In this document: positions 4,267 to 39,683 of the stretch, in pieces
How the letters are laid out: each line of letters opens with the position of its first letter
How positions within the stretch are numbered: position 1 is the first letter of the stretch
IMG/VR virus record: IMGVR_UViG_2834966965_000001
Strand: one strand, 5' to 3'
Source of the DNA: an uncultured virus (IMG/VR IMGVR_UViG_2834966965_000001)
Lineage: Duplodnaviria > Heunggongvirae > Uroviricota > Caudoviricetes
DNA length: 64,000 bases
Made by a program: the position numbers and the translations under genes
The notes under the pieces: generated by a model
Databases searched by the model: none
What the model was told of the DNA's origin: nothing
The model's input: only the letters and a program-made list of their open reading frames with translations

Positions 4267-5418
4267 TTAGTTTATCAATTGCCCTCCAAGTTTTATTGCT
4301 TCCATTACTATAATGGGCAGTTTTTCTTCTTTCATACCGCCCACCAGGGCCATTCTGTTTTGAACTTCTACCTTGAACTCTTTTGAGTTAAACCATTTAT
4401 CTGTTTCAAAATCTATTTGTTTGCATCCGTAGTTTGTGCCTAACGATACTCCGCAGACCGCAGCTGCTGTTAAAAGTACGCCCCGCGCCTGTTTCATGAG
4501 GTGTTCGTACCGAAAACTGTTTTTTTTATAACGCACTATTCCGTATGCTTCCCCAAAAAGGTCAAAGCTATTTGTAATAGTATTCCACCAATCTTTCATC
4601 GCCCATCTGTACCGGTGGCTATCGTTCCCGTGTGTGCGGATTGTTAGCCAGTCTTGAGCGCAGTATCGCCAGATATCACCCATGCGTTCAGTAAGTGACC
4701 AAAAGTCATCTACGCTCATTTCTTTAAGGAAGTCCCGCCGGCACTGGAATTCAACCCGTGTTATCGCGCTTTCTCCATTCCAGCCATTGGTTGACCAAAT
4801 TGTTTGAAACCATTCCTTCTGCGAAATGACTACTTCCAGGGATTTATCATAAATACGCCCGATGATTGAACCTTGGCCGAAACGGTAACCGGTATCCCTT
4901 TGGCCGTTTACATAGTGTTCTGCCGGAAGGCTTCCGTAATATTCAGTTTTGCCCCTGGCGCGAGTAACTACGTCTTGAGCAAGGTTAATACTAGGCATAT
5001 TCATTTCGAGGTCTATACACAAATCACAACGTGAAACCTTGTCACCAACAACTATGGCCCAAGTTCCTATCCAGTGTTTAATATCGTATACAGCTGTTCG
5101 AGCAGTGTTTGCCCAAAGGTACTCAGCCCGAAAGGTTACATATATCTCAGGGTAAATTCTGCCGCCTTCTGCCTTACGGGCAATACAGATACTTACGTCT
5201 CCGTTTTCAAGTACCCATTCATAGCCCTTGGTGCCTCTGGCATGGACGACAAAGGGTTTTCCGAACCAGGTAATACTTGTGCCTTTGCCGCCGAAGAGTT
5301 TTTCGCCAGCGTCTGTTTTGGCTTGCTCAAGTATTTTGAAGCTTTCAATATCTCTATATTGAGATACACAAAAGCCTATTACCAAGCTGTCTACTCCAGA
5401 ACCTAATACAGTATACAT
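4267..5418 (-). CDS. Rolling-circle replication initiator (Rep_trans-like)
   Basis: VSRCDLCID, TGYRFG...RIYDK and TRVEFQ motifs; hairpin-rich intergenic region upstream. Confidence 0.8.
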   Translation of the reverse strand: MYTVLGSGVDSLVIGFCVSQYRDIESFKILEQAKTDAGEKLFGGKGTSITWFGKPFVVHARGTKGYEWVLENGDVSICIARKAEGGRIYPEIYVTFRAEYLWANTARTAVYDIKHWIGTWAIVVGDKVSRCDLCIDLEMNMPSINLAQDVVTRARGKTEYYGSLPAEHYVNGQRDTGYRFGQGSIIGRIYDKSLEVVISQKEWFQTIWSTNGWNGESAITRVEFQCRRDFLKEMSVDDFWSLTERMGDIWRYCAQDWLTIRTHGNDSHRYRWAMKDWWNTITNSFDLFGEAYGIVRYKKNSFRYEHLMKQARGVLLTAAAVCGVSLGTNYGCKQIDFETDKWFNSKEFKVEVQNRMALVGGMKEEKLPIIVMEAIKLGGQLIN

Positions 5419-5484
5419 TTTTTGTACACCTACCTTTGACCGAGTATATGTTTTTTGTACAGTCTTTCACCTTATGGTGTTTGC

Positions 5485-5690
5485 GACCTCCCTGTTAGTG
5501 GGTGAGGGAGGTCTCCGGCCTTTTCGGCCGGGTTAAAACTGTTCCCCCGACTTGGGCTTTTCAGTTTATCCCCTGGTCAAGGCCTCGCCGCCTAGACCGG
5601 CTCTCGCCGGATCTGTCGGCTTGTTTCACAGCCTTGACTGGCAGGGCTTACTGAATAAGCTTGTTCAAGTCGGGGAATGTCAGTTTTTAA
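5485..5690. other. Putative replication origin / packaging hairpins
   Basis: Perfect 9-bp stem 5485-5513 (minus-strand loop CACCCACTAAC), 6-bp stem 5515-5531, and a long imperfect fold-back 5533-5690. Confidence 0.7.
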
Positions 5691-6232
5691 TATACGGCTT
5701 CTTTCGTGTTGTAGAGCTTGAACACTTCTGAGGCCGGTGCTATTTCCAGCAAATAAGGTTCACCGCCATAGCGGCCGTCTATGGTATAGATGACTATCTT
5801 GTTTCCCACTATTTCAGGCAGAAGAGACATTAGCGTTGCATCTCTGAATATAAGGTCTACGCCTAGGCCTTCGTGCATGGTATAGATAATCATGTTGTCC
5901 AGTTTCATAGCTTGCCAAACGTTTACCAGTACCTGGCTTTGTTGTTTGCTGGAATAACCTCTATGGCTAAATAACTGATCTGCTTCGTCTATAAGAATAA
6001 GCCAGCCTCTCAGCTGGTCTTCTTTCATACGAGCCAGGAAGTCTATTATTTCTGAATTCCGTTTTTGGACTATGCCATAAGAAGGTATTGATACGTTGGA
6101 AATTACTTTATCCGGTGTGTAATGACCAAGGCTTATCTCATTAACCGCCAGGGCTACCATGCTGGCGGTTTTGCCGCATCGCATATAGCCCCGTATTTTA
6201 ACTACACCCTCTATAAGGCGGTCAGTTTCCAT
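5687..6232 (-). CDS. Zot/pI-like morphogenesis (packaging/extrusion) ATPase
   Basis: Walker A GYMRCGKT, Walker B LILIDEAD, IIYTMH; no C-terminal TM. Confidence 0.8.
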   Translation of the reverse strand: METDRLIEGVVKIRGYMRCGKTASMVALAVNEISLGHYTPDKVISNVSIPSYGIVQKRNSEIIDFLARMKEDQLRGWLILIDEADQLFSHRGYSSKQQSQVLVNVWQAMKLDNMIIYTMHEGLGVDLIFRDATLMSLLPEIVGNKIVIYTIDGRYGGEPYLLEIAPASEVFKLYNTKEAVY

Positions 6233-6235
6233 TTC

Positions 6236-6562
6236 CTACACCTTGCCGATGCCAAATTGCATAAAGCCCTGTTTACGTTTTTCTTCCAAGGCTACCGCTT
6301 CATATTTGGCAACAGTGGCCGCTTGGTCTCTAACCAGGGTATCAGCAGTATGGGCGTATCTTTCGCACTGGTCTGCAATCTGGTGGAAACAGGAAATACC
6401 AAGCACCTCAGATGTCATATGGCACAACAAAAGGGTTCTGGCCAAAGCTACAGGACAGTTACGATTAGTTGATGAATATTCCAGCATTTGGCTGGAAACA
6501 TTTTTATTGCCGAGTTGGCTTGGATGAATTTCTATTTTTTCCTGGTCTTCTAGATATGACAT
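6236..6562 (-). CDS. Morphogenesis-module hypothetical protein
   Basis: Tightly packed in the operon; positional and weak sequence counterpart of 26455-26871 (RDQ motif). Confidence 0.65.
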   Translation of the reverse strand: MSYLEDQEKIEIHPSQLGNKNVSSQMLEYSSTNRNCPVALARTLLLCHMTSEVLGISCFHQIADQCERYAHTADTLVRDQAATVAKYEAVALEEKRKQGFMQFGIGKV

Positions 6563-7141
6563 TTAACTGCCTCCGGATGGGGGATTAGTCGGGATATAAT
6601 CGCCCTCAGGAATTTCTGTACCATCAGAAGGGTTATCAACCGGATTTTCAGGGTAGACCGGATTATTAGGTATGGTCTGTTCAGGCACAGGTTCACTATT
6701 GCCGGTAGTGAATATCTTGTCCTTATTCTGGAACACAAACATGCCACCTATAGCTATTGCTACTACAAGGAGTATGGTTACAAGATTTACCGATGACTTT
6801 TTAGTTAGCCCTTTTACCTCCTTGAGAGCGTCTGAAGTAATCTTGCCGTTTACCGCCTGGTTAAACATATTGCCGTCAAACATGGCTTGCCCGGTTACCA
6901 GGTTATAATCCACTGCTGAACCGTAGATATGGCCAAAATACGGTTTATTCCATAACTGTTTTATACGATACTCCGGTTCATGTTCATGATAGACATGTTG
7001 CAACCCATTTAGCTTATACTCAAAATGAATACCTTTGTCTGTTACATCTGTAACCAAACCCCTTTCAAACATCAGTCTATCCATGTAATTAACCATTACA
7101 TAACACCGGTTTGAAGGCCGGAATATTTCTAAATCACGCAT
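6563..7141 (-). CDS. Membrane-anchored morphogenesis protein
   Basis: Single TM (LVTILLVVAIAIGGMFVF) followed by a Pro/Asn-rich tail; overlaps the upstream gene. Confidence 0.75.
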   Translation of the reverse strand: MRDLEIFRPSNRCYVMVNYMDRLMFERGLVTDVTDKGIHFEYKLNGLQHVYHEHEPEYRIKQLWNKPYFGHIYGSAVDYNLVTGQAMFDGNMFNQAVNGKITSDALKEVKGLTKKSSVNLVTILLVVAIAIGGMFVFQNKDKIFTTGNSEPVPEQTIPNNPVYPENPVDNPSDGTEIPEGDYIPTNPPSGGS

Positions 7142-7364
7142 TATCGTTACCTCTTATTAAAATCATCATGGCCCAGACAAAACACCATGCCATACCAACC
7201 CCTATTCCAATTCTGGCAAACTGTGGGATAGCTTCATTAGGCAGCAGTGACATTAGAAGGAAGCCGCAGGCGCTTAAAAGGAGCCAGCTTCCCCTTGCCA
7301 GTATTGCCCCAATAAACAGCACAGCGAAGATCACCAGAGTTATTATTAGTCCGATATCTATCAT
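7134..7364 (-). CDS. 76-aa three-TM membrane protein
   Basis: Start MIDIGLII is coupled to the upstream stop (TAATG); hydrophobic throughout. Confidence 0.7.
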   Translation of the reverse strand: MIDIGLIITLVIFAVLFIGAILARGSWLLLSACGFLLMSLLPNEAIPQFARIGIGVGMAWCFVWAMMILIRGNDNA

Positions 7365-7660
7365 TACTCTGTACCTCTCAGCAGTTTGAGCACGATGTAG
7401 ACAAGGATATAGCCGATAGGAGTAAAGATGAGGATATTGAACAAAACGGGCACGCCTTCTAACTGGAAGGTTACAGCACCCCACAGGAACGCCACACTAT
7501 CCCCAATCGTACTAAAGGCGTCTACTATGCCCGTAGGCTGTTCTATGGGTACGCCACCTGTATACGAGCCTACGCCACCAACTCCAAAATGGGCACCGAC
7601 TAGACTAAGCAGCATTACCAATATCACCGATAAAGTTAGTAATGCGTTATTACTCCACAT
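7364..7660 (-). CDS. Small membrane protein, putative minor virion protein
   Basis: N- and C-terminal hydrophobic segments; C-terminus resembles that of 31595-31939. Confidence 0.72.
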   Translation of the reverse strand: MWSNNALLTLSVILVMLLSLVGAHFGVGGVGSYTGGVPIEQPTGIVDAFSTIGDSVAFLWGAVTFQLEGVPVLFNILIFTPIGYILVYIVLKLLRGTE

Positions 7661-9252
7661 TACCCATCACCACCCACCAGCCGTTTGCCACCAGCCGTTT
7701 GCCAGATTATAAAAGCCCCCAAGGCAGCCAGCAGAAGTACGAGCCAAATATCTATCCACCCCATTGCTATAAATGCACCTACCACCAGCAGGGGAGTTAC
7801 TATCGCCATAATCTGTACACGCCAACAAAGAGCTATAGCAGCCGCTACCGCAGCCAACATGATAAGCCAGCGAACTCCGCTATCCTGCTCGCCGATATTG
7901 TCTATGAAATTAGGAATAATCTGGATAATATCGCTTATATCAGTTGTTTCAGGAGGCGGAACAAAAAATGCCCCGTTTACATAATTAACGATGATGTAAG
8001 GCTCTACCTTTACAGTTTCACCGCCCACAGGGATATCAGAACAGCCGGGGCTTAGCCATTCGTCTATATAGGCATCTCCGGAACTCCACAGGACATTCCC
8101 ATAGCTATCATATGACGGGTAGCCAATCATGGCATTTTCAAGTATCATACCGACACGCAGGTTATTATCATCATCAAGATACGAATTTAACCATTGTGTT
8201 TGATTAGCCAAATCCCACTCAGTAGGAACTATATCCCAGGTATGTATGCCGTTTGCCCCTTTATCGGCATCGGTTTGCCCCAATGGATTATAATCCGTAG
8301 AGCTATAGGCGTTAGCCATAAACCAACGGCCATCTGTCTGACTTTCCAGATTAGCCGGATTCCATACCAATACCGCTTTTGTCTTGTGGTAGATTGTTCC
8401 GCTTTGATGCAGGACTATTTCAATACTTCGTATTTTGGAAGTGTCCAGCAAGCCGTCAAGGTTAAAGTACATAACATTCCGGTAGTAATCATCTAAAGCC
8501 ATCAGACCGCTGGTGCGGGTCACCCTAAAATAGTAATCATATGGATTGCTTTCCCACACCTGACTACCATCATCACTAATCAGAGTGCCACCGCTATACG
8601 GGTTTGAATTTGAATCAAATACCTTATAGTAGTTGCTGGTATTTCCGGTAGGGCAGTAAGCCATAATGACATACTTTTGCCCTTGCGTAATACTAGGATT
8701 GCCCAAAGGCAGTTGATAGTCTGCCGTAGTAGTACCTATTTGTGCCTGAGGAGTAGTTATGCTGCCAAGAACCGCACCTAAAGAAGTAGGACTGCCATAA
8801 GCATAAAGGATTACTTGCAAATCGCCCGGATTTCCTACCCTGGCGATTTTTAAAGTCACATACTGACAGCCACCTGTTCCTAAAGCAGTAAAGGATTGCC
8901 CCCTCTTATAATTTGCATATATCTGCTGATAATCACCATTTTGTGACAGGTTTTGAGCATCAGCTATACTGGTAGCTGTAGCACAGGTATAGCCGTTGTT
9001 AAACGTACCCCCGTGGTCAGCCAGCATTATTGAATTGGCTATAGATGTTTGGAATGGGTCACCGGAGACTGCCAAGTCAGACCAGGTAAGGTTTAAATTG
9101 TCGGCATAGTATTCGTAAGCAGAACCAGCTGTAAACATCTTGGTTTGCAGTGTCTCAGTTGCAGATACCGTACCGGGCAGCATGCTAACCAGCATTACCG
9201 CCAGGCTGGATACCACTCCGATTATTCGTTTTAGATGTTTGGTTTTATACAC
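7660..9252 (-). CDS. Putative spike / receptor-binding protein
   Basis: Signal peptide, beta-rich ectodomain containing the shared GQSFT domain, and C-terminal TM segments. Confidence 0.8.
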   Translation of the reverse strand: MYKTKHLKRIIGVVSSLAVMLVSMLPGTVSATETLQTKMFTAGSAYEYYADNLNLTWSDLAVSGDPFQTSIANSIMLADHGGTFNNGYTCATATSIADAQNLSQNGDYQQIYANYKRGQSFTALGTGGCQYVTLKIARVGNPGDLQVILYAYGSPTSLGAVLGSITTPQAQIGTTTADYQLPLGNPSITQGQKYVIMAYCPTGNTSNYYKVFDSNSNPYSGGTLISDDGSQVWESNPYDYYFRVTRTSGLMALDDYYRNVMYFNLDGLLDTSKIRSIEIVLHQSGTIYHKTKAVLVWNPANLESQTDGRWFMANAYSSTDYNPLGQTDADKGANGIHTWDIVPTEWDLANQTQWLNSYLDDDNNLRVGMILENAMIGYPSYDSYGNVLWSSGDAYIDEWLSPGCSDIPVGGETVKVEPYIIVNYVNGAFFVPPPETTDISDIIQIIPNFIDNIGEQDSGVRWLIMLAAVAAAIALCWRVQIMAIVTPLLVVGAFIAMGWIDIWLVLLLAALGAFIIWQTAGGKRLVGGDG

Positions 9253-9283
9253 TTCTTTATCCTTTCTTTTAATCTAGCTATCT

Positions 9284-9318
9284 CTGCCCTGAAAACTACC
9301 TTATCGCCTTCAGGGCAG
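9284..9318 (-). terminator. Stem-loop after the putative major coat gene (attenuator or mRNA stabiliser)
   Basis: 10-bp stem CTGCCCTGAA/TTCAGGGCAG; no clear U tract. Confidence 0.55.
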
Positions 9319-9328
9319 GGGAGAGAGA

Positions 9329-9667
9329 TTAGTCGTTCTTGAACAGGTTGATTGCGGCCATGATAATGCCGACACCGCCGCCAAGAGGAATAGCCCAGAC
9401 AAGCAGGTTCATGATCATCTTGACCATGTCACCGCTGCCGGTATCAGTCTGGATAACAGCATTGGCATCTACCAGGGAAGGAGTAAGAGCCATGAGCATC
9501 AGAGCGGCCATGAACAGCATGACCAGACCGCCAATATTCATGCTACCTGTCTGGCAGGTTACCAGATTGTCCAACCACTGGGCCGCCTGTTTCTTGAGGG
9601 GTATGCCATTAACCATCTGCTCAATGGACATGGCATGTTTAATTCTTTTGAGTAGCTTTACCACCAT
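9329..9667 (-). CDS. Putative major coat protein precursor (two-helix hydrophobic hairpin)
   Basis: Hydrophilic ~41-aa leader, then NIGGLVMLF...LTP, a polar loop, and NLLVWAIP...LFKND. First structural gene, followed by a stem-loop. Confidence 0.7.
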   Translation of the reverse strand: MVVKLLKRIKHAMSIEQMVNGIPLKKQAAQWLDNLVTCQTGSMNIGGLVMLFMAALMLMALTPSLVDANAVIQTDTGSGDMVKMIMNLLVWAIPLGGGVGIIMAAINLFKND

Positions 9668-9719
9668 TTCACCTTCTTTCTTTTTCCGTTTTATCTCAAA
9701 GCCTGCAGTGCTTTAAAAC

Positions 9720-10112
9720 CTAGTGTTTGCCAGCTTTTTCCTTGTTGTTGCTTTCGGCCAGCAGCTGGCGTTCACCGGTCTCAAGTTCAATCTGGACATC
9801 TTCAGCCGTCAGAGAGTCATACTTTTTGCCTTTGTATTCGCTGGTGTCTTCGATGCCTTCCAGATATACAAACTGTCCTTTTTTCAGTTCGCGGTAAGTG
9901 TTTTCGGCCAAAGTTCCCCAGCACTTAACGTTTTTCCAGGTGGAGGCAACGGTTTCTTCTTTCTTTTCCTTGTCCCAATAGCCGCCGTAGCTTACCGAGA
10001 ACCTTGTTACTGCCTTGCCGGTAGGGGTATAGGTCATTACCGGTTCTTTGGTTACCCTTGCCCTGTGGATTTTCATCTCACAATAAGATTTGCGTTCATA
10101 CTTCTGATCCAT
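9720..10112 (-). CDS. ssb: Single-stranded DNA-binding protein
   Basis: YTPTGKAVTRFSV, W.NVKCWG.LAE and LKKGQ.V..EG OB-fold motifs; lacks the acidic DDIPF tail. Confidence 0.88.
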   Translation of the reverse strand: MDQKYERKSYCEMKIHRARVTKEPVMTYTPTGKAVTRFSVSYGGYWDKEKKEETVASTWKNVKCWGTLAENTYRELKKGQFVYLEGIEDTSEYKGKKYDSLTAEDVQIELETGERQLLAESNNKEKAGKH

Positions 10113-10152
10113 AGTCTTTCCCTTTCCTTTTTAAAATATTAAGCCGTACCAC

Positions 10153-10395
10153 TTACGCAGTACGGCTTGCCCACATTAGCTTGAGCTCCTTTAACGAATA
10201 ACCGCCGGTAGCCACTCCTTTGTTATTATTTATATTTGAAGCTTTCGCTTTGCGGTCTCTTATCTCCTGAAGGGTAGGCAGCCGGGGTCTTCCACCCAGC
10301 TTGCCCAGCTCCTTCATATGTTCCTGTCCATACAGGGCTACTGTCTTAAGTCCACCCAGGCGGCCGATTTCTTTGTTGGTTAATTTCTGTTTCAT
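10153..10395 (-). CDS. Small basic KGG-like repeat protein
   Basis: GRLGG...HMKELGKLGGRPR; homologue of 42338-42583. Confidence 0.75.
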   Translation of the reverse strand: MKQKLTNKEIGRLGGLKTVALYGQEHMKELGKLGGRPRLPTLQEIRDRKAKASNINNNKGVATGGYSLKELKLMWASRTA

Positions 10396-10413
10396 TTCAC
10401 AACCAAATGTTAT

Positions 10414-10496
10414 AAATACAACTGAATTGCCTATAATGTAACCGAATACTGTTTCAAATACAACAATATATACAGCCAAATAGACGCAAATACAAC
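10414..10496. promoter_or_regulatory. Three AAATACAAC direct repeats in the divergent control region (candidate operators)
   Basis: Copies at 10414, 10456 and 10488, between the repressor and the early operon. Confidence 0.4.
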
Positions 10497-10575
10497 ACTA
10501 ATTTGGTCTTGATATCTCTTAATATCTTTAAAAATCACAACGATACTGTTACAATTGCCACAGTTGAGGTAAAAG

Positions 10576-11205
10576 ATGTCTAATTTAGGCCTAATAATTA
10601 AAGAATTGAGAGAACGTCGAGGGTGGCCACAAACAGAACTTGCTGACCGAGCAGGCATTTCACGTTCTAGTCTTGCGACTATTGAAATTGGCCGTTCTGT
10701 GCCTAAGGTGGAAACTTCAATAAAAATTGCAAAAGTCTTTGGTATGACAGTTGAAGAGCTTTATTCTAAAGCTGGATACGAGACAGGTAAGACAGTTGTT
10801 GAAACGACAGAAGATATACTTGAACGTCTCAGGCTGGCATCACCGATAGCCGTACCTGTCTATACAGACTTTGTCATTCATGCAGGGGATAATGTGGAAG
10901 CACCAATAGAATATATCTATCTTGCCCGACCCAAAGCGGTTGGCAAGAATATAGAAGCCTATCTTATAAAAGGGCAGTGCATGGAGCCGGATATCCAAGA
11001 CGGGGATATTGCCATTGTGGATAGGGATGTAGCACCGGAAAAAGGCAATATTATTCTTTGCTTGATAAACAGCGAAATTGTCATTGGCCGCTATTTATTG
11101 GATAAAGAAGGCAAACCGTATATTCAGAATGGCCATGGCAAACACACTCTAAAAGAGTGCCAGGCAACAGCCGTTGTGACTGGGATATCAAGAAATATGA
11201 GATAG
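10576..11205 (+). CDS. CI/LexA-like repressor (XRE HTH + S24 domain)
   Basis: N-terminal HTH, HAG cleavage-site motif, and GQCMEP at the G.SM position. Confidence 0.9.
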   Translation: MSNLGLIIKELRERRGWPQTELADRAGISRSSLATIEIGRSVPKVETSIKIAKVFGMTVEELYSKAGYETGKTVVETTEDILERLRLASPIAVPVYTDFVIHAGDNVEAPIEYIYLARPKAVGKNIEAYLIKGQCMEPDIQDGDIAIVDRDVAPEKGNIILCLINSEIVIGRYLLDKEGKPYIQNGHGKHTLKECQATAVVTGISRNMR

Positions 11206-11280
11206 GCTTTTAATGCTCTCGTTTTATAAGTTTAATATGTATTCCGATAATAGATCTTTTCAAGGTGGTCTGATACTTAT

Positions 11281-12066
11281 ATGGCTGAATTTTTAACTAC
11301 TCATGCTGTCGCTTATAACATTGAAAACATTATTATTAATGCGAAAGAACTATTAGTCCTTATTAGTCCGTATCTTCAATTGTCTAAAACATTTTATGAA
11401 AGAATTAGAGATGCGCACAATAAAGGTGTGCAAGTCGTTATTATTTACGGTAAAGATCAATTAAAACCCGAAGAAAAAGTCCAACTCAACTCATTACCCA
11501 ATGTAGACATCTATTTCTGCGAAAATTTGCATGCTAAATGTTATTTCAATGATTATTCTATGATTATCACTTCGATGAATATGTTTGAGTTTTCTGAAAA
11601 AAATAATAGGGAAATGGGGATTTTAATTCAGAAAGATACTGATATAGTAGTATTTAATAAGGCTTTGGGCGAAGTAAAATCTATTATAGATTCTTCTCAG
11701 AAAATTCCTTTGACTAATGTGACCCCCAAAAAATCATCAAGAACTATTGATCAAATAGAATCGAAGAAATCTGATTCAGCAAAAAAACCTATTAAAATGG
11801 ACTTTAATCTAAAAACAGACCTTGGGCAGTTATTCCAGGGTGCACTTTCTTCTATATTGGGTGCTGATAAATTAGATGCTTACTGTATTAGGTGCAAAGC
11901 AAAAATCCCTTATGATGCAAGGCATCCATTATGTGATGCGTGTTATCCTGAATGGGCATCATATAAGAATAGAGAATATAAAGAAGAGTTTTGTCACAAA
12001 TGTGGTAAACGATCTAAAACTTCGTATGCTTATCCCGAATGCCGGGATTGTTACAAAGGAAATTAA
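11281..12066 (+). CDS. PLD-family (single HKD-type) nuclease-like protein with C-terminal Zn fingers
   Basis: LISPY and LHAKCYFND...ITSMN...NREMG motifs; four CxxC pairs. Confidence 0.8.
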   Translation: MAEFLTTHAVAYNIENIIINAKELLVLISPYLQLSKTFYERIRDAHNKGVQVVIIYGKDQLKPEEKVQLNSLPNVDIYFCENLHAKCYFNDYSMIITSMNMFEFSEKNNREMGILIQKDTDIVVFNKALGEVKSIIDSSQKIPLTNVTPKKSSRTIDQIESKKSDSAKKPIKMDFNLKTDLGQLFQGALSSILGADKLDAYCIRCKAKIPYDARHPLCDACYPEWASYKNREYKEEFCHKCGKRSKTSYAYPECRDCYKGN

Positions 12067-12258
12067 TAATTAAATTTAGTACAGTAAGAAATAATCTGGA
12101 ACAGATACTAATGTTTACCCGAGATAGCAGAGGATCGTGTTTATCGGTAATAGAGCAAAGAAGTATTATTGTTCTATTTATAACTACTTGCATCATAGGA
12201 TTAAAATAAGCAATTGTCGAAATCAAGTAATTTTAGCATCCATAATTTAAGGGAGGCT

Positions 12259-12789
12259 ATGGTGGATTGGAATGTTTTGGAATCCTGTTCAACTTTTTTA
12301 GCGGCAATTATAGCCTTATTTCTTGGATTGCGGGGCATATATGAAAATACTAAACATCGTAAAGAACAACTATCAGTTGCTAAAGAAATGAGAAGGCTTG
12401 CCTTACTTGAAGTAGTTTTTGAATGGGCTAATGAAATTAATCAGACATCAATACTATATTCACGAGAAGCTATACATAATAATAATCAAACACAGTTTAG
12501 TGCCAAAGAATCCGATCTATCAAAACGATTAAGTTTTCATTATTCTAGAAGTAAGCATATAGAAATAATCAGCAAAGTATTAAACGAAGGTATTAGTGAT
12601 AACGTATTAGCTGTGAACGTTGTTTTAAAAAATGCATTGAATTGTTTGAATAAATACTATAACGATAAGATATTTGATGACTTATTATTTCCATTAAGTA
12701 ATGAATTATTTAAACTAAATCAATCGTCTTTGGATTTGATTAAAGTAATATCTGAAGAACAAGTATTTGAAGATGTAATTAAAAAGTAG
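12259..12789 (+). CDS. Hypothetical protein with N-terminal TM
   Basis: GGAGG SD before ATG 12259; one TM then a helical region; AT-rich. Confidence 0.6.
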   Translation: MVDWNVLESCSTFLAAIIALFLGLRGIYENTKHRKEQLSVAKEMRRLALLEVVFEWANEINQTSILYSREAIHNNNQTQFSAKESDLSKRLSFHYSRSKHIEIISKVLNEGISDNVLAVNVVLKNALNCLNKYYNDKIFDDLLFPLSNELFKLNQSSLDLIKVISEEQVFEDVIKK

Positions 12790-12829
12790 TATTAAATCAA
12801 TAAGTATTCATTTAATTTTGGAGTAAATA

Positions 12830-26871: not shown

Positions 26872-26872
26872 G

Positions 26873-28615: not shown

Positions 28616-28891
28616 ATGAAAATGAAACTGAAGAATGAAAGACAACAGAGGAGTGAGCCCTTCGTACTTACTACGGTGGGTGAGGCTATCACTGAGCTGG
28701 AATTATTTAAGGATGATGTGAAGGTTGTGCTTGAACACTACAAACGCAGTCCGGCAGCCATGGCTAAGGTTGTTGGAGTGAACCGGCGTAAGATCCATGA
28801 TTGGCTTAGCGGCAGATCTTACCCTCGGGAACCAATAACGTTGTTGAGTATAATGAAATGTGCAAACAAAATACGGGCCTTAAAAAAATAG
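28616..28891 (+). CDS. HTH DNA-binding protein
   Basis: MAKVVGVNRRKIHDWLSGRSYP XRE-like motif. Confidence 0.7.
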   Translation: MKMKLKNERQQRSEPFVLTTVGEAITELELFKDDVKVVLEHYKRSPAAMAKVVGVNRRKIHDWLSGRSYPREPITLLSIMKCANKIRALKK

Positions 28892-29865
28892 CTCTCGGAC
28901 TGGTATTGGCGGTGACGTGCTTGGCTTGTCTGCCTGCGCCTGTGCTGGCTGTTGACCCGGCAACTCCTACTACATTTACCTTGGACTCGGTGCAGGTAGT
29001 TACCAACATACTTGAAGATGATGATATGGTTGTAGCTTTCCGTTACAACATCACCTACTCAAGCGGTCAGCCGTCTATCCCTGCTAATAAACTCTTTCAT
29101 TTTCGGCTGATGGATACTGACGGGATTACTCAGCTGGGAGCGATAGAACCTTACCCATACTATAATTCAGGTTATGGGCAGGGTTTTTCTGCCTTTTATT
29201 TTGCCGGCGATGCAGCTCCTGACTGGGAATCCGCTCTGGTGCTGAAAATGGTTGGAAACCCACAATATTGGGCCAGCCCGCCGGAAGTTAATTATACGCT
29301 GACCAGTGCTGATTACAGCCAGCTCTCTACCAGATCTGAGAATAGTTCCCTGCTGGGAAATTATATTATTGAGACCTGCCGCGACCTGGAAATAAACTGG
29401 TCTGTAAAATTGGTCACTGAAACTCCTCAGGGCACTATTTTAAACGATACAGGAGCTGCATATGGGCGTGGGACCATCCCAGGGCTACAGAACATGTGCC
29501 CTCAGATATTTTCTAGCCAGCAGCAGGTTATAGATATACCGGATCAGACATGGACTAACACCAAACTGAATGAGTGGATCCATCAGTTTGATGGAACAGT
29601 GGTAGGGGATGCCCTTATCGGCCTCTCAGATCTATTTTCAGTGTCATGGATAATACTAACCAGTCTGATCTGTGTAGTCCTGGTTATTTTGGTCTTTGTG
29701 TGGGGTATGCTGGCTTACTCTGATAATCAAGCAGCCATGGTTGCCGGCATCCGTATATTCTCCGGAGGGGCATTAATGGGTATTTTCCACCCGGCTGCCC
29801 TGGCATTAATAACTCTGGTTTATGCTGCTTACACCGCGTTTGTGATAATAGGAGATAAGGGATGA
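28858..29865 (+). CDS. Secreted-domain membrane protein, putative minor virion protein
   Basis: Signal peptide (PVLA-VD), beta-rich region, C-terminal TMs. Confidence 0.78.
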   Translation: MCKQNTGLKKIALGLVLAVTCLACLPAPVLAVDPATPTTFTLDSVQVVTNILEDDDMVVAFRYNITYSSGQPSIPANKLFHFRLMDTDGITQLGAIEPYPYYNSGYGQGFSAFYFAGDAAPDWESALVLKMVGNPQYWASPPEVNYTLTSADYSQLSTRSENSSLLGNYIIETCRDLEINWSVKLVTETPQGTILNDTGAAYGRGTIPGLQNMCPQIFSSQQQVIDIPDQTWTNTKLNEWIHQFDGTVVGDALIGLSDLFSVSWIILTSLICVVLVILVFVWGMLAYSDNQAAMVAGIRIFSGGALMGIFHPAALALITLVYAAYTAFVIIGDKG

Positions 29866-31598: not shown

Positions 31599-31939
31599 GG
31601 CCACAATGGATCACATGGATTGTATTTACCTACCTGGTGGGGCAGGTTATGTGTCTGGTTTTGGAAGGTACATGGCTAGGCGCAGCTGATCAGTCTTTTC
31701 TCAATGCACTTCTTGGATTTACGGCTATCGAGTACACTGATAGTACAATTGCCAATGTAGGTATTACCGTGGTCAATATGGTAGCTGGAGCAGCTGGATT
31801 TTTTACTTATGCACTACCTAGATTATTGCTCTGGAATTACTCTTTTCTTGATGGTAGTTGGTTTTTAGCCAAGCTTTTCTTCTTATATCCTATTTCCGCC
31901 GGTACAATATTTGGCATATATACCTTATTTCGCAGGTAA
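31595..31939 (+). CDS. Small membrane protein
   Basis: ATGA overlap; counterpart of 7364-7660. Confidence 0.72.
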   Translation: MRPQWITWIVFTYLVGQVMCLVLEGTWLGAADQSFLNALLGFTAIEYTDSTIANVGITVVNMVAGAAGFFTYALPRLLLWNYSFLDGSWFLAKLFFLYPISAGTIFGIYTLFRR

Positions 31940-34296: not shown

Positions 34297-34701
34297 TTAC
34301 ACTCCTATTGCCTGTAATGAACAAAAATCAAACGTATTTAAGAACCGTACCCCATCATCCAAATTCTCAAATACTACATCCGCCAATTCTCTAACTATGG
34401 CAAAATATCTGCTAAACTCTGCATCCGATTCTTGTTTTTCATCTACAAGAACTACAGTTTTACCTAACGCTTTGGCATATCCAATCTCACATGCTAACCC
34501 ATATCCAGAAGGGTTTGTTTTTTCCATATACGCAAATACGATGTCGGACTCCTTCACATAAAAAATATCCCATACCTTATAGTGCGAAGGGAGTTTATGC
34601 CCGCTTACTTTAGGGTTAAAATACCTATGTTTTGGGCATATTTTCATCACATCTTCCTGCCACTCGGAGTTCATACCTCCTGAAAGATAAACTCTAACCA
34701 T
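34297..34701 (-). CDS. Nucleoside 2-deoxyribosyltransferase-like protein
   Basis: VYLSGGM, FNP, D.....SD and EIGYA.ALGK motifs. Confidence 0.8.
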   Translation of the reverse strand: MVRVYLSGGMNSEWQEDVMKICPKHRYFNPKVSGHKLPSHYKVWDIFYVKESDIVFAYMEKTNPSGYGLACEIGYAKALGKTVVLVDEKQESDAEFSRYFAIVRELADVVFENLDDGVRFLNTFDFCSLQAIGV

Positions 34702-35542
34702 TTATAATTCCCTCCATATTTGCAAACTGATTAAGCTTTTGAATTTTAAAATCAGGTAATACCAACTGCCCGAAGTCCTCCGGTGTGCGAAAGTCTACCT
34801 CAGTAAGAGGGCGACAAGAGGAATGAAGATACATACTATCGGTTATATAACCTCCATTCCTATTGCGTAGGGCATTATCAATTGAGGTTGCAACATCCCA
34901 ATCTGAAGTATTTTTTATTGATTGCCACTCGTTATTACACTGGTACGGGCAACATACACAGGCAGAGCGGGGAACATTTATGTTTGGGTAGTAATATGCA
35001 AGCCATTCTAAGCATGCCTGTCGTGACATAGGCATCATATTTACAAGGGGAAATACTGGGATTAGCCATTTATTATTTTGTCGGTAAGACAACATCCTAT
35101 TTGCTTCATCGGTGGATATTCCAATCCATAAATCTACTGCCTCAGAAGGAATACGCTCATTTGGTGTGACGCATAACCATCGGCGTATTTCGTGGCGTAT
35201 AGGGGCAATCTTATATTCTCTGGTGCATTGTCTCCGTAAAATGCTTTTAATGCCCGTCTTATTAATACAGTGGGCTGGTATGACAATAAACGAACTCTTT
35301 AATTCGTTTGCGTTCAGAATGTCATTTTTTAAGTCTCCAGCCTGTATACGTGCTATCGGTATACTGTTTTCCCCAGCCAGTTTGGTTAACCATGCGAGGT
35401 GAGCATAAGTGGCTTGGCTTTCTGCACCAGTATCGGCAAAAATGGCAATATCAGGTTTGGGTAACTGTCCTTTGATTGACATAAGAAGTATTGTGGTGCT
35501 TTGTACCCCAGCACCTAGTGATAGCACTGTAAATTTACTCAT
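34694..35542 (-). CDS. PAPS-reductase-like PP-loop (adenine nucleotide alpha-hydrolase) protein
   Basis: SLGAGVQST, FADTG.E, RQCT..YKI.P, GISTDE and SAC..CPY motifs. Confidence 0.8.
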   Translation of the reverse strand: MSKFTVLSLGAGVQSTTILLMSIKGQLPKPDIAIFADTGAESQATYAHLAWLTKLAGENSIPIARIQAGDLKNDILNANELKSSFIVIPAHCINKTGIKSILRRQCTREYKIAPIRHEIRRWLCVTPNERIPSEAVDLWIGISTDEANRMLSYRQNNKWLIPVFPLVNMMPMSRQACLEWLAYYYPNINVPRSACVCCPYQCNNEWQSIKNTSDWDVATSIDNALRNRNGGYITDSMYLHSSCRPLTEVDFRTPEDFGQLVLPDFKIQKLNQFANMEGIING

Positions 35543-35563: not shown

Positions 35564-35806
35564 TTACGCTGAAGTAACAACAGACATTACCGTGGGAATC
35601 AATCGGATATAATCCTTCACTACAGCCCCCCCCGCTCGTCTTAATCTACAAATAGTGCAAAGCTCCTTTTGCTTTTGTCTTATAAAATCCTCGCCGAAAG
35701 CCTTTAAAATCTTGGCCTTAATCTCTTCCCTTTGTTTTGCCTGACGTGTTATCTGTGCTTTTGTGAACATTTGTTTATTTCCTCTCAAATTTAATATGGC
35801 GGTCAT
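35564..35806 (-). CDS. Hypothetical protein
   Basis: ATGA overlap with the resolvase stop; GAGGTGA SD. Confidence 0.5.
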   Translation of the reverse strand: MTAILNLRGNKQMFTKAQITRQAKQREEIKAKILKAFGEDFIRQKQKELCTICRLRRAGGAVVKDYIRLIPTVMSVVTSA

Positions 35807-36486
35807 GCCGTCACCTCTTCTTTTTCCATCTCTATGTCCACCAGCTGGGGAATTGTTAGGCCTTGAGCCTGGCACTCTCTTTGCAGCCGGATCTGGACAA
35901 ACCCCGGGGTCACTTTTTTACCAACCCACTTGCTGATAATCTCGGCCGCTGCGGAAAACTTCCTACCGCCTAGCTGATAGGCTTTACAAACTTTTGTGAT
36001 GTCAATATCTATGCGGGGCTTGCCGATTGGATTACCCGACTTAGTGCCGCACTTTTTTGCGTGCAGCATCCCCGCCATTGACCGCTCCCGGATGATGTCT
36101 CTTTCAAACTGAGCAAACCCTGCATAGATGGTAAAGATAAGGTCTCCGGCTGGACCGGCGACATTGAGCTCCGGCTGGGTCATAAAAACCATGTCTATAC
36201 CATAACCCCGTAAAATCTTTACGGTCCGCCAGGCCATCTCTATATCCCTGAAAGCCCGATCCATTTTCCAGACCACCAGGGCTTTATACTTTCGCTTGGC
36301 AGCGTCTTCCATGGACCGCGCCCAGGCCTTACGGTGGACGAAGTCACTGGCAGAAGCCAGATCTATATACTCTTCAGATATTTCCCAGTCCTGCCGCCGG
36401 CAATATTCACGGAGCTCGGCCAGCTGGACTTCCGGGTTCTGGTTCTTATCAACAGTGCTTACCCTGGCATATAACGCGACTTTCAC
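35803..36486 (-). CDS. Small serine recombinase (resolvase/invertase)
   Basis: ALYARVST, VWKMDR..R and FERDII.ER motifs. Confidence 0.92.
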   Translation of the reverse strand: MKVALYARVSTVDKNQNPEVQLAELREYCRRQDWEISEEYIDLASASDFVHRKAWARSMEDAAKRKYKALVVWKMDRAFRDIEMAWRTVKILRGYGIDMVFMTQPELNVAGPAGDLIFTIYAGFAQFERDIIRERSMAGMLHAKKCGTKSGNPIGKPRIDIDITKVCKAYQLGGRKFSAAAEIISKWVGKKVTPGFVQIRLQRECQAQGLTIPQLVDIEMEKEEVTA

Positions 36487-36796: not shown

Positions 36797-37032
36797 GTGC
36801 AAGAAATCTTGACAATTACGAATGAGTATTTTATTTTTAGCTTTAATATTTTCTTGCACTTCTCTTGCACCTATTATTAATTTAGCTTTATATTTTCTTG
36901 CACTTGTCTTGCACCTGTATTGCACTTCTCTTGCACTTCTTGCACCCTCTTGCACCCCCAAGGTGCAAGAAATTTTACGTTCAGATAATTTTTGGCTTAC
37001 GATTAAAAATAGTTTTCTTGCACTTCTTGCAC
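36797..37032. repeat. E2 replication origin: (C)TTGCAC iterons
   Basis: 10 forward and 2 inverted copies, often 11 bp apart, in AT-rich DNA just downstream of the primase-helicase. Confidence 0.82.
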
Positions 37033-37085
37033 CATTTTTTAATACATGGGATATTTTCGGGGGCGACACACATTTTTTCATTGTT

Positions 37086-39683
37086 TTACTCACCCCTCTT
37101 TTGTTCGTCACGTCCTAAGAATTCACGTTTGATATGCAATACACGGCATCCTTTCGCTATTACCGGGATATATTCAAATACAGTGGATTTGCCGTCTTTA
37201 CCCGGATCCACATAACCACGCTTCACCAGATCCATAAAAACAGCATCCTTTTTGACAAAAGCCTCATTGATTTTCTGATAATGCTGGCTGGCGACCTGGT
37301 AAGCCAGATCATTGTGGAGGGAAACATGCCCGTTAGTCCGGTCATCCCAGCCGATCAGAGTTTGGCCAGGTGAAGGCGAGCGGGGATTTGCCCCGTCTTT
37401 AACGTCCAGGTATGCCGTACCGCCTATAAGGGCTGCATTTAAGGCATTTATAAACTTTTTAGAGGGTGTAGCATCATCTATCCGGGCACCTTGACGCTTG
37501 GCCATTTCAATAAATACTTCGCGGGCCTGTTTTAAAAGGTACGCAGATCCCACTGAATCATTTTCACCATTCCCGCTCTCGTCTATAAATCTATCGAATA
37601 TATCCGATGCCCCGTTTTCTTCAGCCCAGCGGATAGCCATTTCCAGACCGATATACAGGAGAGCTATAGATCTGGGCAGCCTAAGATGCACGTTTTCACC
37701 CCGGAGGCTCTCGGTAAATTGTTCAAAGACCTCTTGATAGCGTTGGCGCAGATACACTTTCTTTGCCGGCCAGTCAGCTTGCAGCCATGCCAGGTAATGA
37801 GCCATAGCCCGGCGGTATAGATGGTCTTCTTTTTGGGATAGGGTAAGACAAGGGAATTCGATATCCGTTTTTGACATTTCAATTACCAGAAAGCGGGCAT
37901 TATTGCTTTCGCCTGGCGGTTGCCCTTCCGAAGTGGATATCAGAAAGCCTCTGGGTACATATTCCTGTCTCATAGAGGTATCAGCTGACATGCGCTTGCG
38001 GCCTTGTCTGTTTGCTTGGCCGCGGCATACATAATCCGCCTTGGCATCAAACTCTTTTTGAGAGGCGGTAGTCTGCCCGGGTGACCAGTCATCTACCAGC
38101 ACCGGCATATCCTTGCAGGTGAACAGGATGCGCTCCAGGGTATTCTGAGTATCCCGCCAGGCAGCCGGCACACAGGTATAATCAAAATCTCCGTAGTGGC
38201 AGAGTGCCAGTGACGCTATGGTAGTTTTAAGGCTGCCGGATCCGGCAATCAGCCAGAGGTTAAAATTGGTGTCGATAGCATCTGAGAGGGGTGTCATATA
38301 CATCGCCGCAAACAGAGGCAAGGTAATGTACAGTTTGGCCACTTTAAGGAAGTTAAAACTGGCCTCAATAAAGGCTTTTACATCGTCATCCGGTTCAGGT
38401 GACGGCACATCATAATGGCTGATATTAGAGGGCATTTCAACTTCTACATTATCGGCACCAATGGCGCCGTGGGGAGTCAGGTAAACATCTTTACCGTTGA
38501 TATTCGTCCAGCCGGTATTTTCGTAGATAATCCGGCAGGGTGCGTCCATCGACATATACTGCATTGCCCCGCGTAACAGGCGTTCAGCTGAAGGGCTGGG
38601 CTCAATCATGGCCTTAATTCCCCACTGGGATAATGCCCATGACATAGAGGAAAAGTTTTCAGAAGGAACTTCGATATCCGGAAAGGGACGGCCCGTACAG
38701 TCTGTACCGCCTATCCTGAAAAACGTCTTTCGGTTTATGCCGTTGTCTTTAATAATTTCTTCTTTAACGGCAGCCACAAAATTACACAGCGGAGCATCAT
38801 ACGGCACATTGTCCTTATAGGAATGGTAAATAATTCGGCCGGCTTCGATACTGAACTTGCCGTCAGATAGAAAGTATAGATTCTGGTTTTTTGATGGCGT
38901 GTAGCTTTTGGCTGTGGCTACTAGGTCATCCAGAACGGATATCTGGCCGCCGGCTTCCAGCCACTCGGTAAAATCCTTGGCGTCACCGGGTACCTCTATA
39001 ATCTTGACCGGTATCTTTTGCCGCCGGCAAGACATGGCAATATCAGAGGCATGTTTACGGCCCGGGGCGTCTTTATCGGCAATAATTACTACCTGAGAGG
39101 CTCCCAGCAGGTCATTAGTATAAGTCTCTCGCCACTTGCCGGCGCCCATTGGCGAGGTAGTGGCCACCAGTCCCATAGCACGGGCGTTGTCGGTGTCTTT
39201 TTCGCCCTCGGTTACCCAGATAGTCTGGCCTGTTTTTACAGCCTCCAGCACTTCCGGCAGATGGTAAATAACCGGCTCTATATCCTTCATATTCCAGACC
39301 CAGCCGGTCTTGCCGCCAGGGTGCCGCTGAGAGAAGCTCTTAGGCTCAAACCTGACTACCTGGAATATCAGCTGGCCGCTTTTGTCCGTATAGTCATAAG
39401 TCTGCTTTATCTCGCGTTTAACGCCGTTTTTGGGCTTGGATTGCTTAGGTGTTTTGGGGACTAAATCATCCACCGGCATATCCAGCGCGGCTATGATCTG
39501 TTCATACGTGCACCCGGCGAAACACTTAAGGAGCACTCTGCCGTCCTTTTCACTTACGGATAGAGACGGATTTTTATCGGCATGGGCCGGGCAGCAGGCC
39601 ATCCAGCCGGCGCCGTTTTTCTTAACGCCCTGTAACTTGGATAGTATATCGTCTATCGTATATTTACGTTTAGTTGTTTCCAT
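37086..39683 (-). CDS. Primase-helicase (Zn finger + TOPRIM + DUF927/Cch-like helicase)
   Basis: CPAH...C.AGC, TEGEKD...DKD, GSGSLKTT and LVDDW motifs. Confidence 0.88.
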   Translation of the reverse strand: METTKRKYTIDDILSKLQGVKKNGAGWMACCPAHADKNPSLSVSEKDGRVLLKCFAGCTYEQIIAALDMPVDDLVPKTPKQSKPKNGVKREIKQTYDYTDKSGQLIFQVVRFEPKSFSQRHPGGKTGWVWNMKDIEPVIYHLPEVLEAVKTGQTIWVTEGEKDTDNARAMGLVATTSPMGAGKWRETYTNDLLGASQVVIIADKDAPGRKHASDIAMSCRRQKIPVKIIEVPGDAKDFTEWLEAGGQISVLDDLVATAKSYTPSKNQNLYFLSDGKFSIEAGRIIYHSYKDNVPYDAPLCNFVAAVKEEIIKDNGINRKTFFRIGGTDCTGRPFPDIEVPSENFSSMSWALSQWGIKAMIEPSPSAERLLRGAMQYMSMDAPCRIIYENTGWTNINGKDVYLTPHGAIGADNVEVEMPSNISHYDVPSPEPDDDVKAFIEASFNFLKVAKLYITLPLFAAMYMTPLSDAIDTNFNLWLIAGSGSLKTTIASLALCHYGDFDYTCVPAAWRDTQNTLERILFTCKDMPVLVDDWSPGQTTASQKEFDAKADYVCRGQANRQGRKRMSADTSMRQEYVPRGFLISTSEGQPPGESNNARFLVIEMSKTDIEFPCLTLSQKEDHLYRRAMAHYLAWLQADWPAKKVYLRQRYQEVFEQFTESLRGENVHLRLPRSIALLYIGLEMAIRWAEENGASDIFDRFIDESGNGENDSVGSAYLLKQAREVFIEMAKRQGARIDDATPSKKFINALNAALIGGTAYLDVKDGANPRSPSPGQTLIGWDDRTNGHVSLHNDLAYQVASQHYQKINEAFVKKDAVFMDLVKRGYVDPGKDGKSTVFEYIPVIAKGCRVLHIKREFLGRDEQKRGE

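Follow-up and report, generated by a model that had tools for sequence, protein, structure and literature searches.

A 64,000-nucleotide stretch of DNA from an uncultured virus (IMG/VR record IMGVR_UViG_2834966965_000001; the whole stretch is called the window below) is best explained as a row of tandem integrated elements downstream of a tRNA-Ala(GGC) gene in a Dehalococcoides mccartyi-type genome. Its first two elements, E1 and E2, would be two lineages of one broad class of viruses with a pI-type assembly ATPase, not one virion on two replicons. We put the probability of this explanation as a whole at about 0.7. From its genes, E1 is classed here as a temperate inovirus-like provirus, and E2 is assigned by its predicted gene content to the published IME1 family rather than to the classical inoviruses. 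A sequence-only reading of the window had proposed that one backbone of virion, integration and immunity genes runs on two unrelated replicons. The same integration and immunity cassette was indeed found on two unrelated replicons, that of E2 also carrying a resolvase; the same virion was not borne out. From left to right, the array is ordered as follows.

Left of the window: tRNA-Ala gene
1-15468: E1
15469-15516, plus strand: attachment site (att) repeat copy 1, the 3' part of tRNA-Ala(GGC), marking the border between E1 to its left and E2 to its right
15517-43663: E2
43664-43711, plus strand: att repeat copy 2, the right end of E2, abutted by a third element
To the right: the third element, E3, with a serine integrase

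The borders are marked by a 48-nucleotide (nt) direct repeat at 15469-15516 and 43664-43711, with 47 of 48 positions identical and the copies 28,195 bp apart. The 25-nt core at the 3' end of the repeat is found in the window at these two places only, where the chance expectation is 0. In a relative genome (G056), an intact tRNA-Ala(ggc) called by ARAGORN is directly followed by an orthologue of the E1 integrase (90% amino acid identity). Window positions 15472-15549 (78 nt) are 92% identical to the 3' part of this tRNA plus the next 33 nt, so that the left junction of the E1-type element in G056 matches the left junction of E2; the same joint was present in sequencing runs X1 and X2. Raw RNA reads from run X24 extended the repeat leftwards into a full-length tRNA. 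Because of the G056 junction and these reads, the repeat is read as the part of tRNA-Ala(GGC) that starts in the anticodon loop and finishes with the CCA end. ARAGORN and Rfam found no complete tRNA and no Rfam family inside the window, and therefore the intact tRNA-Ala gene must sit immediately to the left of the window. Both integrase genes are preceded by nearly identical stretches of 33-34 nt that follow the tRNA core, which fits related integrases with related arm sequences. The predicted host is a Dehalococcoides mccartyi-type bacterium, since the nearest database proteins carry that species name. The comparison with reads and contigs covered window positions 1-20000 and used mostly assembled contigs (Logan). 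By analogy with ssrA islands (McMurdie et al. 2011), the 3' end of ssrA (tmRNA) was also considered as the att site and was rejected on the tRNA-Ala(ggc) of G056 and the X24 reads.

Together with the tRNA-Ala att site, three pairs of genes make up the shared cassette.

1-960, plus strand: E1 tyrosine integrase (Pfam Phage_integrase, E 1.6e-35)
15428-16552, plus strand: E2 tyrosine integrase of the IME1 HOG02 type (Pfam Phage_integrase, E 6.8e-29; phrog_1)
10153-10479, minus strand: E1 small basic GG-motif protein, homologue of E2 42338-42583
42338-42583, minus strand: E2 small basic GG-motif protein, matched by BLASTP to its E1 counterpart
10576-11205, plus strand: E1 CI-like repressor with helix-turn-helix (HTH) and S24 autopeptidase (Pfam HTH_3, E 4e-16; Peptidase_S24, E 5e-8)
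42961-43611, plus strand: E2 CI-like repressor with HTH and S24 autopeptidase (Pfam HTH_3, E 1.9e-15; Peptidase_S24, E 3e-12)

By BLASTP, the integrases are 45.4% identical over 328 amino acids (aa, E 1.7e-84), the repressors 41.6% over 209 aa (E 1.5e-62), and the GG-motif proteins 37.8% over 82 aa (E 2e-14). All three had been named as common to E1 and E2 before these comparisons. The label "KGG" for the third found no counterpart in Pfam, which returned 0 families even at E 10. Identities of 38-45% fit shared ancestry, or earlier exchange among elements competing for one att site in one host. The true start of the E1 integrase lies 3 nt before the window, as shown by the letters lying at the joint in runs X1 and X2, and the real start of the E2 integrase is probably downstream of the att repeat.

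The particle modules share far less. Their genes are given below.

5687-6232, minus strand: E1 short pI/Zot-like assembly ATPase, 181 aa (own Pfam matches: AAA, E 6e-5; Zot, E 0.011)
6236-7660, minus strand: four small E1 proteins, candidate minor coat or assembly proteins, by hydropathy 108 aa soluble, 192 aa with one transmembrane segment, 116 aa with two and 98 aa with two
7660-9252, minus strand: E1 530-aa secreted, C-terminally anchored protein with N- and C-terminal hydrophobic segments, candidate adsorption protein
9329-9667, minus strand: E1 candidate major coat protein with two hydrophobic segments and a probable internal start near residue 43
19664-28547, minus strand: E2 particle module, minus-strand block, with 180- and 84-aa proteins of two transmembrane segments, 146-, 130- and 138-aa proteins, the ATPase, and 87-, 339- and 1570-aa proteins
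25664-26518, minus strand: E2 pI-like ATPase, 284 aa (HOG04), 99% identical to a D. mccartyi protein and 56-58% to Dehalogenimonas proteins
28616-31939, plus strand: E2 particle module, plus-strand block, with a 91-aa HTH protein, secreted membrane-anchored proteins of 335 and 578 aa, and a 114-aa protein with three transmembrane segments

Profiles were built for 46 open reading frames (ORFs), 45 from E2 plus the E3 serine integrase, each with at most five relatives, taken from loci L001 and L004-L007. At E < 0.01, seven of these 46 profiles matched an E1 ORF. Three of the seven belong to the particle module: the 578-aa protein (1.8e-13), the ATPase (7.6e-4) and the 84-aa protein, whose match was the E1 coat-like protein (0.003). 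The other four are the integrase, the GG-motif protein and two profiles of the HTH/repressor kind. The sole particle-module domain pair detected by BLASTP was the E1 530-aa and E2 578-aa proteins (27% over 151 aa, E 4.5e-8), and the same search also gave a generic HTH match. When 11 E1 proteins were compared with 13 E2 particle-module families by single-sequence hhalign, 1 of 143 comparisons reached a probability of at least 30%. This was the 530/578-aa pair, at 94% (reversed-sequence control, 0.1%). The E1 coat-like protein and the E2 84-aa protein align as collinear two-helix proteins with 29% identity over 52 columns, at an hhalign probability of only 20%. At least five conserved E2 particle-module proteins (1570, 339, 335, 146 and 130 aa) have no E1 counterpart. 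Shared morphogenesis genes had also been proposed for the two elements; this stands for the ATPase at profile level and for one domain of about 130 aa, while the small membrane proteins are marginal and the rest are without match. Because the particle modules largely differ, one virion tolerating both single-stranded DNA (ssDNA) and double-stranded DNA (dsDNA) does not follow from the sequence.

The shared domain spans residues ~116-245 of the E1 530-aa protein and ~204-338 of the E2 578-aa protein. An AlphaFold model of E1 residues 95-260, made with a 5-sequence alignment, had a mean pLDDT of 79.5 and formed an all-beta sandwich. The best Foldseek matches in the PDB were a phi812 baseplate protein (E 1.2e-5, TM-score 0.66), a PBCV-1 capsid-associated chain, the central fibre of mycobacteriophage Douge, and CBM6. 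The modelled fold points to a domain of the receptor- or carbohydrate-binding type, and so to a common host surface, not a common capsid.

The assembly ATPases also link the two elements. Against the E2 family, hhalign gave the E1 ATPase a probability of 92% with 3 E1 sequences and 98.3% (E 1e-14, 167 columns) with 49, and the control comparisons, with two unrelated P-loop proteins from the window, gave 4% and 0.05%. Seven of 117 representatives of the E1 ATPase family also matched the E2-family profile at E < 1e-7, and a distant IME1-like locus in another Dehalococcoidia genome (G371) was matched by the E1 ATPase profile at 4.7e-13. Because of these cross-matches and this locus, the E1 and E2 ATPase families grade into each other, and a common distant origin of the predicted assembly ATPase is likely. 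Among relatives of the E2 ATPase, 2 of 16 matched Pfam Zot; a search of this protein against 50,697 phage records gave no match. The E2 ATPase alignment also gave weak matches at loci L002 and L003, in a Micrarchaeota contig (27%, 166 aa) and a Halorubrum genome (39%, 53 aa), a hint that the short ATPase type may occur in archaeal elements too.

E1 carries its own replication genes.

4267-5418, minus strand: E1 rolling-circle Rep, gene II-like endonuclease, 383 aa (phrog_33635 endonuclease, E 6e-12)
5419-5686, minus strand: E1 structured intergenic region, 268 nt, flanked by the ATPase and Rep genes, a candidate for origin and packaging signal
9720-10112, minus strand: E1 SSB of the cellular OB-fold type (Pfam SSB, E 6.9e-16; phrog_44)

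Searched by tblastn against the 50,697 phage records, the E1 Rep gave 5 matches, all of them Thermus inovirus records. Its BLASTP alignment with gene II of one of these phages, OH3, covers residues 4-325 at 24% identity (E 2e-17). This makes it a predicted rolling-circle initiator related to gene II. As ssDNA, positions 5419-5690 fold at -64 kcal/mol compared with -30 in shuffled sequences (z -9.1; 0 of 200 shuffles as good). The Ff intergenic region occupies the corresponding place, between ATPase and Rep genes. With the Rep, the SSB and this fold, the rolling-circle replicon with SSB and hairpin origin ascribed earlier to E1 was recovered, the origin as a candidate. In two E1 relatives, the ATPase-Rep intergenic region is 0.7-0.9 kb longer (L008 994-1887; L017 11131-11861), and therefore the origin-like region tolerates insertions; the insert in G056 holds a 216-aa ORF.

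The gene order of E1 runs SSB, coat-like protein, adsorption protein, small transmembrane proteins, ATPase, intergenic region and Rep, in parallel with OH3, and the coat-like gene lies between the SSB and adsorption-protein genes like gene VIII in OH3. E1 thus has the several short membrane proteins and the large adsorption protein in order with SSB that are looked for in an inovirus. No Pfam or PHROG family was found for the four small proteins. A HMMER search of 1.84 billion representative sequences recovered 117 relatives of the E1 ATPase, mostly of 170-210 aa; ten clusters of this wider family that were looked up for their hosts had uninformative names. Pfam Zot matched 18 of 49 aligned family members, with a best value of 2.5e-15, and hhalign related the family to the OH3 morphogenesis protein at 96.5%. 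At the level of its family, the E1 protein therefore qualifies as a predicted pI/Zot-like morphogenesis ATPase of an inovirus-like provirus. E1 is considered inovirus-like because of its Rep, SSB, intergenic fold, ATPase family and OH3-like gene order. It departs from the inovirus pattern in an ATPase without a membrane segment and a cellular-type SSB.

All E1 core genes recur in G056 in the same order, at 58-98% aa identity. The ratio of nonsynonymous to synonymous rates (dN/dS) was 0.02-0.34 across all 11 E1 genes compared. The SSB is 98% identical to its orthologue (dN/dS 0.02), and the small proteins are 79-94% identical, with dN/dS of 0.04-0.12 for the 108-, 192- and 98-aa genes; the 116-aa ORF, at 85%, was outside the dN/dS set. 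The coat-like gene is the most divergent E1 gene (58%). By these comparisons, E1 represents a maintained family under purifying selection, not debris. Exact-sequence clusters placed its ATPase, its Rep and the 530-aa protein both in many D. mccartyi genomes that carry a name and on contigs 7-12.6 kb long, and include the locus-tag prefixes B1772 and B1778, of the same series as the KB-1 genomes B1773 and B1774. Among 401 sampled Dehalococcoidia species genomes, the E1-type ATPase proper was present in 1, and the other 5 matches were IME1-type. Searches with the E1 ATPase gave 0 loci in viral contigs and 2 loci in metagenome contigs; the E1 Rep had no match in the genome-contig and viral-contig collections, and two single ATPase family members used as queries of the sequence collections had none either. 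Contigs of the RNA-library run X20 reached a depth of 217 over 4646-9224 and of 1352, or about 6-fold more, over the SSB/coat-like stretch 9381-10061, which is suggestive of expression of the E1 core. Raw RNA reads of run X24, in a relative, fell almost only on the tRNA fragment and were uninformative on E1 expression.

The replication genes of E2 are of a different kind.

35803-36486, minus strand: E2 small serine recombinase (resolvase; Pfam Resolvase, E 1.6e-33)
36797-37032, no strand assigned: E2 iteron cluster (repeat families D3 and D16), a candidate origin just downstream of the primase-helicase gene
37086-39683, minus strand: E2 primase-helicase with CHC2 zinc finger, Toprim and DUF927 (Pfam Zn_ribbon_DnaG, Toprim, DUF927; phrog_6088, phrog_239)

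Eleven of the window's 12 TCTTGCAC sites lie within the 236 bp of the iteron cluster; 1.66 would be expected window-wide, and no shuffle reached 12. The earlier description of E2 as a 28-kb element with primase-helicase and iterons was thereby confirmed, its size by the repeat spacing. The name IME1 was reportedly first given by Molenda et al. in 2019. In the preprint by Nesbo et al. (bioRxiv 10.64898/2026.09.15.751708), IME1 elements (DmV) are described from Dehalococcoides and Dehalogenimonas, with lengths of 20.9-28.1 kb and 14 conserved gene groups including a pI-like ATPase, tyrosine recombinase, resolvase, primase-helicase and terminal repressor. E2 has a tyrosine recombinase at one end and a CI-type repressor at the other, each beside an att repeat. 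It also has the pI-like ATPase (HOG04) with adjoining conserved small transmembrane proteins, and a serine resolvase with an archaeal-type primase-helicase in its replication module. Its repeat-to-repeat length of 28,195 bp is slightly above the published IME1 maximum of 28,058 bp. Particle-module genes of E2 are syntenic with IME1-type loci L001 and L004-L006, and Pfam and PHROGs found no tailed-phage hallmark genes in E2. E2 is already known as a kind, because its architecture matches the preprint's description; the same text likewise argues that these elements are not classical inoviruses, as the sequence-only reading had held for E2. Profiles of the IME1 primase-helicase, resolvase and conserved particle-module proteins had no match among the E1 ORFs, and E1 is not an IME1.

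For the family, Nesbo et al. report that 56-79% of DNase-treated viral-fraction reads from KB-1 cultures map to IME1s, that filaments and vesicles were seen by electron microscopy, and that the elements also occur as a circular episome; this particle evidence concerns other family members, not E2. They propose non-lytic dsDNA filamentous or budding viruses. It had been stated beforehand that E2 DNA never being packaged would refute a shared virion; the viral-fraction reads contradict such a lack of packaging for the IME1 family.

In the mechanism proposed for E1, the tyrosine integrase would insert the element at the tRNA and the CI/S24 repressor, whose gene is divergent from the minus-strand operon, would maintain its silence. 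On induction, the gene II-like Rep would nick the origin within the structured intergenic region, and the SSB would coat the displaced strand. The short, membrane-segment-free pI/Zot-like ATPase, five small membrane proteins and the 530-aa adsorption protein would then assemble and extrude particles without lysis. E2 would replicate by its primase-helicase at the iteron origin and would use a larger, mostly different particle module.

Several observations weigh against reading E1 and E2 as two lineages of one ATPase-defined virus class, with E1 a maintained inovirus-like provirus. Taken alone, the E1 ATPase falls below the Pfam Zot cut-off (15.7 bits vs 20.3, E 0.011). A Kyte-Doolittle scan, a crude predictor, found no membrane segment in it, and it fails the pI definition of Roux et al., which asks for one or two transmembrane domains. 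The E1 SSB is of the cellular and not the gene V type. In the comparison with G056, saturation of dS (0.3-2.8) makes the dN/dS values approximate, and the X20 depths come from Logan contigs, which do not prove transcription. The only joint at the E1 ends, from 15541 to 1 with 9 letters between, in runs X1, X2 and X24, was considered as a sign of circular E1 and rejected: the left junction of E1 has the same 34 nt as that of E2, an integrated left junction explains the joint equally well, and therefore it is no evidence for a circle. The likeness of the E1 coat-like and E2 84-aa proteins may leave room for more virion sharing than sequence methods reveal.

It is this last point that an essentially common virion, built from fast-diverging homologues and holding ssDNA in E1 and a 28-kb, possibly dsDNA, genome in E2 in pleolipovirus-like manner, would develop. 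Both ATPases are without a membrane segment, and both modules keep a common local order of two-transmembrane small protein(s), one-transmembrane proteins, a soluble protein of ~110-140 aa and the ATPase. To these may be added the profile match at E 0.003 with its 52 collinear columns, and the domain common to the large anchored proteins. The ATPases also score nearer to each other (98.3%) than to the OH3 protein (96.5% and 79.6%), but OH3 was represented by one template sequence, so this ranking of probabilities is not a phylogeny. Since 142 of 143 particle-module comparisons stay below 30%, at least five conserved E2 proteins lack an E1 counterpart, and the common domain belongs to a receptor-binding type exchanged among unrelated phages, we judge a common virion improbable. 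A separate, bolder reading takes E1-type elements as the closest ssDNA-replicon relatives of IME1, with a swap between Rep/SSB and primase-helicase, resolvase and iterons together with enlargement of the particle module, in either direction. Both would then extrude via a membrane-segment-free pI-type ATPase through the peptidoglycan-free Dehalococcoides envelope. We offer this history of replicon swap and extrusion tentatively, as unlikely but not far-fetched.

E1 might instead be a defective remnant, or a satellite needing E2 (IME1) or another helper, the shared genes reflecting parasitism. It does adjoin E2 at the same att site with the same types of regulatory gene, an insertion sequence (IS) splits one of its genes, and no E1-type region is among the strongly enriched viral-fraction regions in the main text of the preprint. 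The libraries of that study were made by dsDNA adapter ligation, which would presumably under-sample ssDNA particles. E1 has its own ATPase, adsorption-type and coat-like proteins, Rep, SSB and origin-like region; the IS-free form is dominant in two runs, and purifying selection was seen on 11 of 11 E1 genes tested. In G056, the E1-type element at ~175 kb is far from the only IME1-type ATPase found, at ~972 kb. Dependence on a helper or decay is accordingly given little credence. That neither element makes virions, both being plasmid-like integrative elements in which the ATPase and the membrane proteins have some other role at the membrane, would agree with the failure of Pfam and PHROGs to find capsid, portal or terminase genes and with most module proteins having no known family. 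The IME1 share of the DNase-treated viral fraction, the inovirus gene II proteins as nearest phage relatives of the E1 Rep, and a gene order like that of an isolated inovirus make it very hard to credit. We thus keep the interpretation of two lineages within one broad pI-ATPase class.

The remaining features of E1 surround its core.

1675-2982, plus strand: IS3-family IS, 1,308 bp, with orfA 1760-2044 and orfB 2095-2970 (Pfam HTH_Tnp_1, rve)
3298-4128, minus strand: N6/N4 DNA methyltransferase, accessory (Pfam N6_N4_Mtase, E 2.2e-43; PADLOC MTase_II, E 9e-94)
11281-15409, plus strand: low-GC cargo (GC 0.29-0.34) with a PLD-family nuclease, a 191-aa protein and an 859-aa P-loop/TPR protein

The IS splits a winged-HTH-HNH gene into minus-strand halves at 1386-1694 and 2982-3293. 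It is absent from the dominant form in metagenome runs X1 and X2, whose contigs join 1674 to 2983 with 255 letters on each side, and this join opens a 202-aa frame of the gene. Removal of the IS leaves E1 at about 14.2 kb, in agreement with the size of about 14 kb estimated earlier. The cargo matched Pfam PLDc_2, AAA_22 and TPR, and its nuclease is DrmC/MkoB-like in PADLOC. Cargo depth was 0 in run X2 and ~225 in X1, and G056 has a different 6.1-kb segment there. Because the cargo is missing in X2 and replaced in G056, the stretch from repressor to right att site is a variable cargo slot, which looks like a swappable defence slot. E1 is thus a conserved core of ~10 kb plus the IS and 4.2 kb of cargo. 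In run X1, one contig of depth 209, with only 22 letters on its shorter side, connects 1349 with the att-repeat end at 15508 and skips 14,158 bp; this is not a simple att-by-att excision.

Several accessory features were observed in E2. The gene right after the integrase, 16591-17484, gave a match to the candidate defence family PDC-S42 (PADLOC E 1e-102; phrog_3243). Positions 17886-19030 hold a tandem duplication with a spacing of 588-645 nt, comprising membrane proteins of 134 and 153 aa that are 72% identical and a second copy of an HTH-gene segment with 80% DNA identity to the 3' end of 18293-18532 and no listed ORF. A nucleoside deoxyribosyltransferase-like gene (34297-34701) and a PAPS-reductase-like gene (34694-35542; phrog_424, E 2e-36) are also present, and one IME1 of the preprint has a PAPS-reductase-like accessory gene.

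To the right of E2, E3 begins with its integrase.

43663-45252: E3 serine integrase, 529 aa, abutting att copy 2

The last ~16 codons of this ORF run antisense through the tRNA-Ala fragment. Beyond the integrase, E3 (43663-52200) encodes an HTH protein together with an ImmA-like peptidase, a recombination directionality factor of the Gp3 kind, a primase-helicase with DUF3854 and DUF927, and a resolvase. Islands of the DsiB type (McMurdie et al. 2011) are similar to it. The right end of the window, 57301-64000, is a minus-strand block of genes for 766, 153, 107, 248, 245, 405, 134 and 89 aa with no Pfam family, in which the 766-aa gene has an internal periodicity of ~354 nt and the 248- and 245-aa genes are paralogous.

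While E2 is already a known kind, the E1 type was not found described in the literature searched. No description of a rolling-circle/SSB element of this kind was encountered in the Dehalococcoides literature searched, where a mention in Molenda et al. 2019 or the preprint supplements is possible; the preprint main text contains 0 occurrences of "rolling", "SSB" or "single-strand". The preprint leaves open whether IME1 particles contain dsDNA and what they look like. E1 offers a natural ssDNA-type comparator for IME1, with the same host and att site, related regulators and ATPase, and a classical ssDNA replication kit, and existing viral-fraction material could serve for both elements. Should E1 particles hold ssDNA and IME1 particles dsDNA, Dehalococcoides would host both genome types within one broad pI-ATPase virus class; if E1 is not packaged, it is just another conserved island at a tRNA hotspot. 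Detection pipelines for which pI must have a membrane segment can overlook an entire inovirus-like lineage.

Among known systems, IME1 resembles E2 throughout. Both have an end tyrosine recombinase, a pI-like ATPase flanked by small transmembrane proteins, an opposite-strand HTH gene followed by three secreted or transmembrane proteins, a resolvase and primase-helicase, a terminal repressor, a GC content of ~44-45% and no tailed-phage hallmarks. With E1, IME1 shares the integrase, repressor and ATPase types. Unlike IME1, E1 lacks primase-helicase and resolvase, has Rep and SSB on a ~10-kb core, and leaves most IME1 particle proteins unmatched. In Roux et al. 2019 (PMC6813254), replication and integration families are exchanged broadly across inovirus families while structural proteins are family-specific, which is the pattern between E1 and E2. 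That study filed E2-type sequences as "Densinoviridae Sf_3". In its supplementary file 4, all 4 Dehalococcoides entries are E2-type (pI cluster PC_00033), two of them having the lengths of L005 and L007, and none is E1-type. The transmembrane requirement for pI is one possible reason for missing the E1 type.

The Thermus phages OH3, phiOH16 and Zuza (Tubulavirales, Paulinoviridae) have a gene II protein homologous to the E1 Rep at 24-26% identity, and OH3 has a morphogenesis protein related to the E1 ATPase family (96.5%) and a similar gene order. Their protein likeness to E1 was seen only in the Rep and the ATPase, the phage-record search having used the Rep alone. Unlike these phages, E1 is a temperate element that carries a CI/S24 repressor and a tyrosine integrase, with a core ~2 times as large and an SSB of the cellular type. 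The OH3 morphogenesis protein has 318 aa, whereas the E1 ATPase has 181 aa and no predicted transmembrane segment.

Pleolipoviruses of haloarchaea combine one membrane-vesicle virion module with varied replication modules and have ssDNA or dsDNA genomes. Pfam and PHROG scans found no pleolipovirus-type family, and the lone weak Halorubrum match covers 53 residues of the Walker-A region; no direct comparison was made. Here, unlike in Pleolipoviridae, the host is bacterial, and E1 and E2 have differing virion modules. If the tentative replicon-swap history were true, the two elements would form a bacterial counterpart of the pleolipovirus switch between ssDNA and dsDNA, side by side in one genome.

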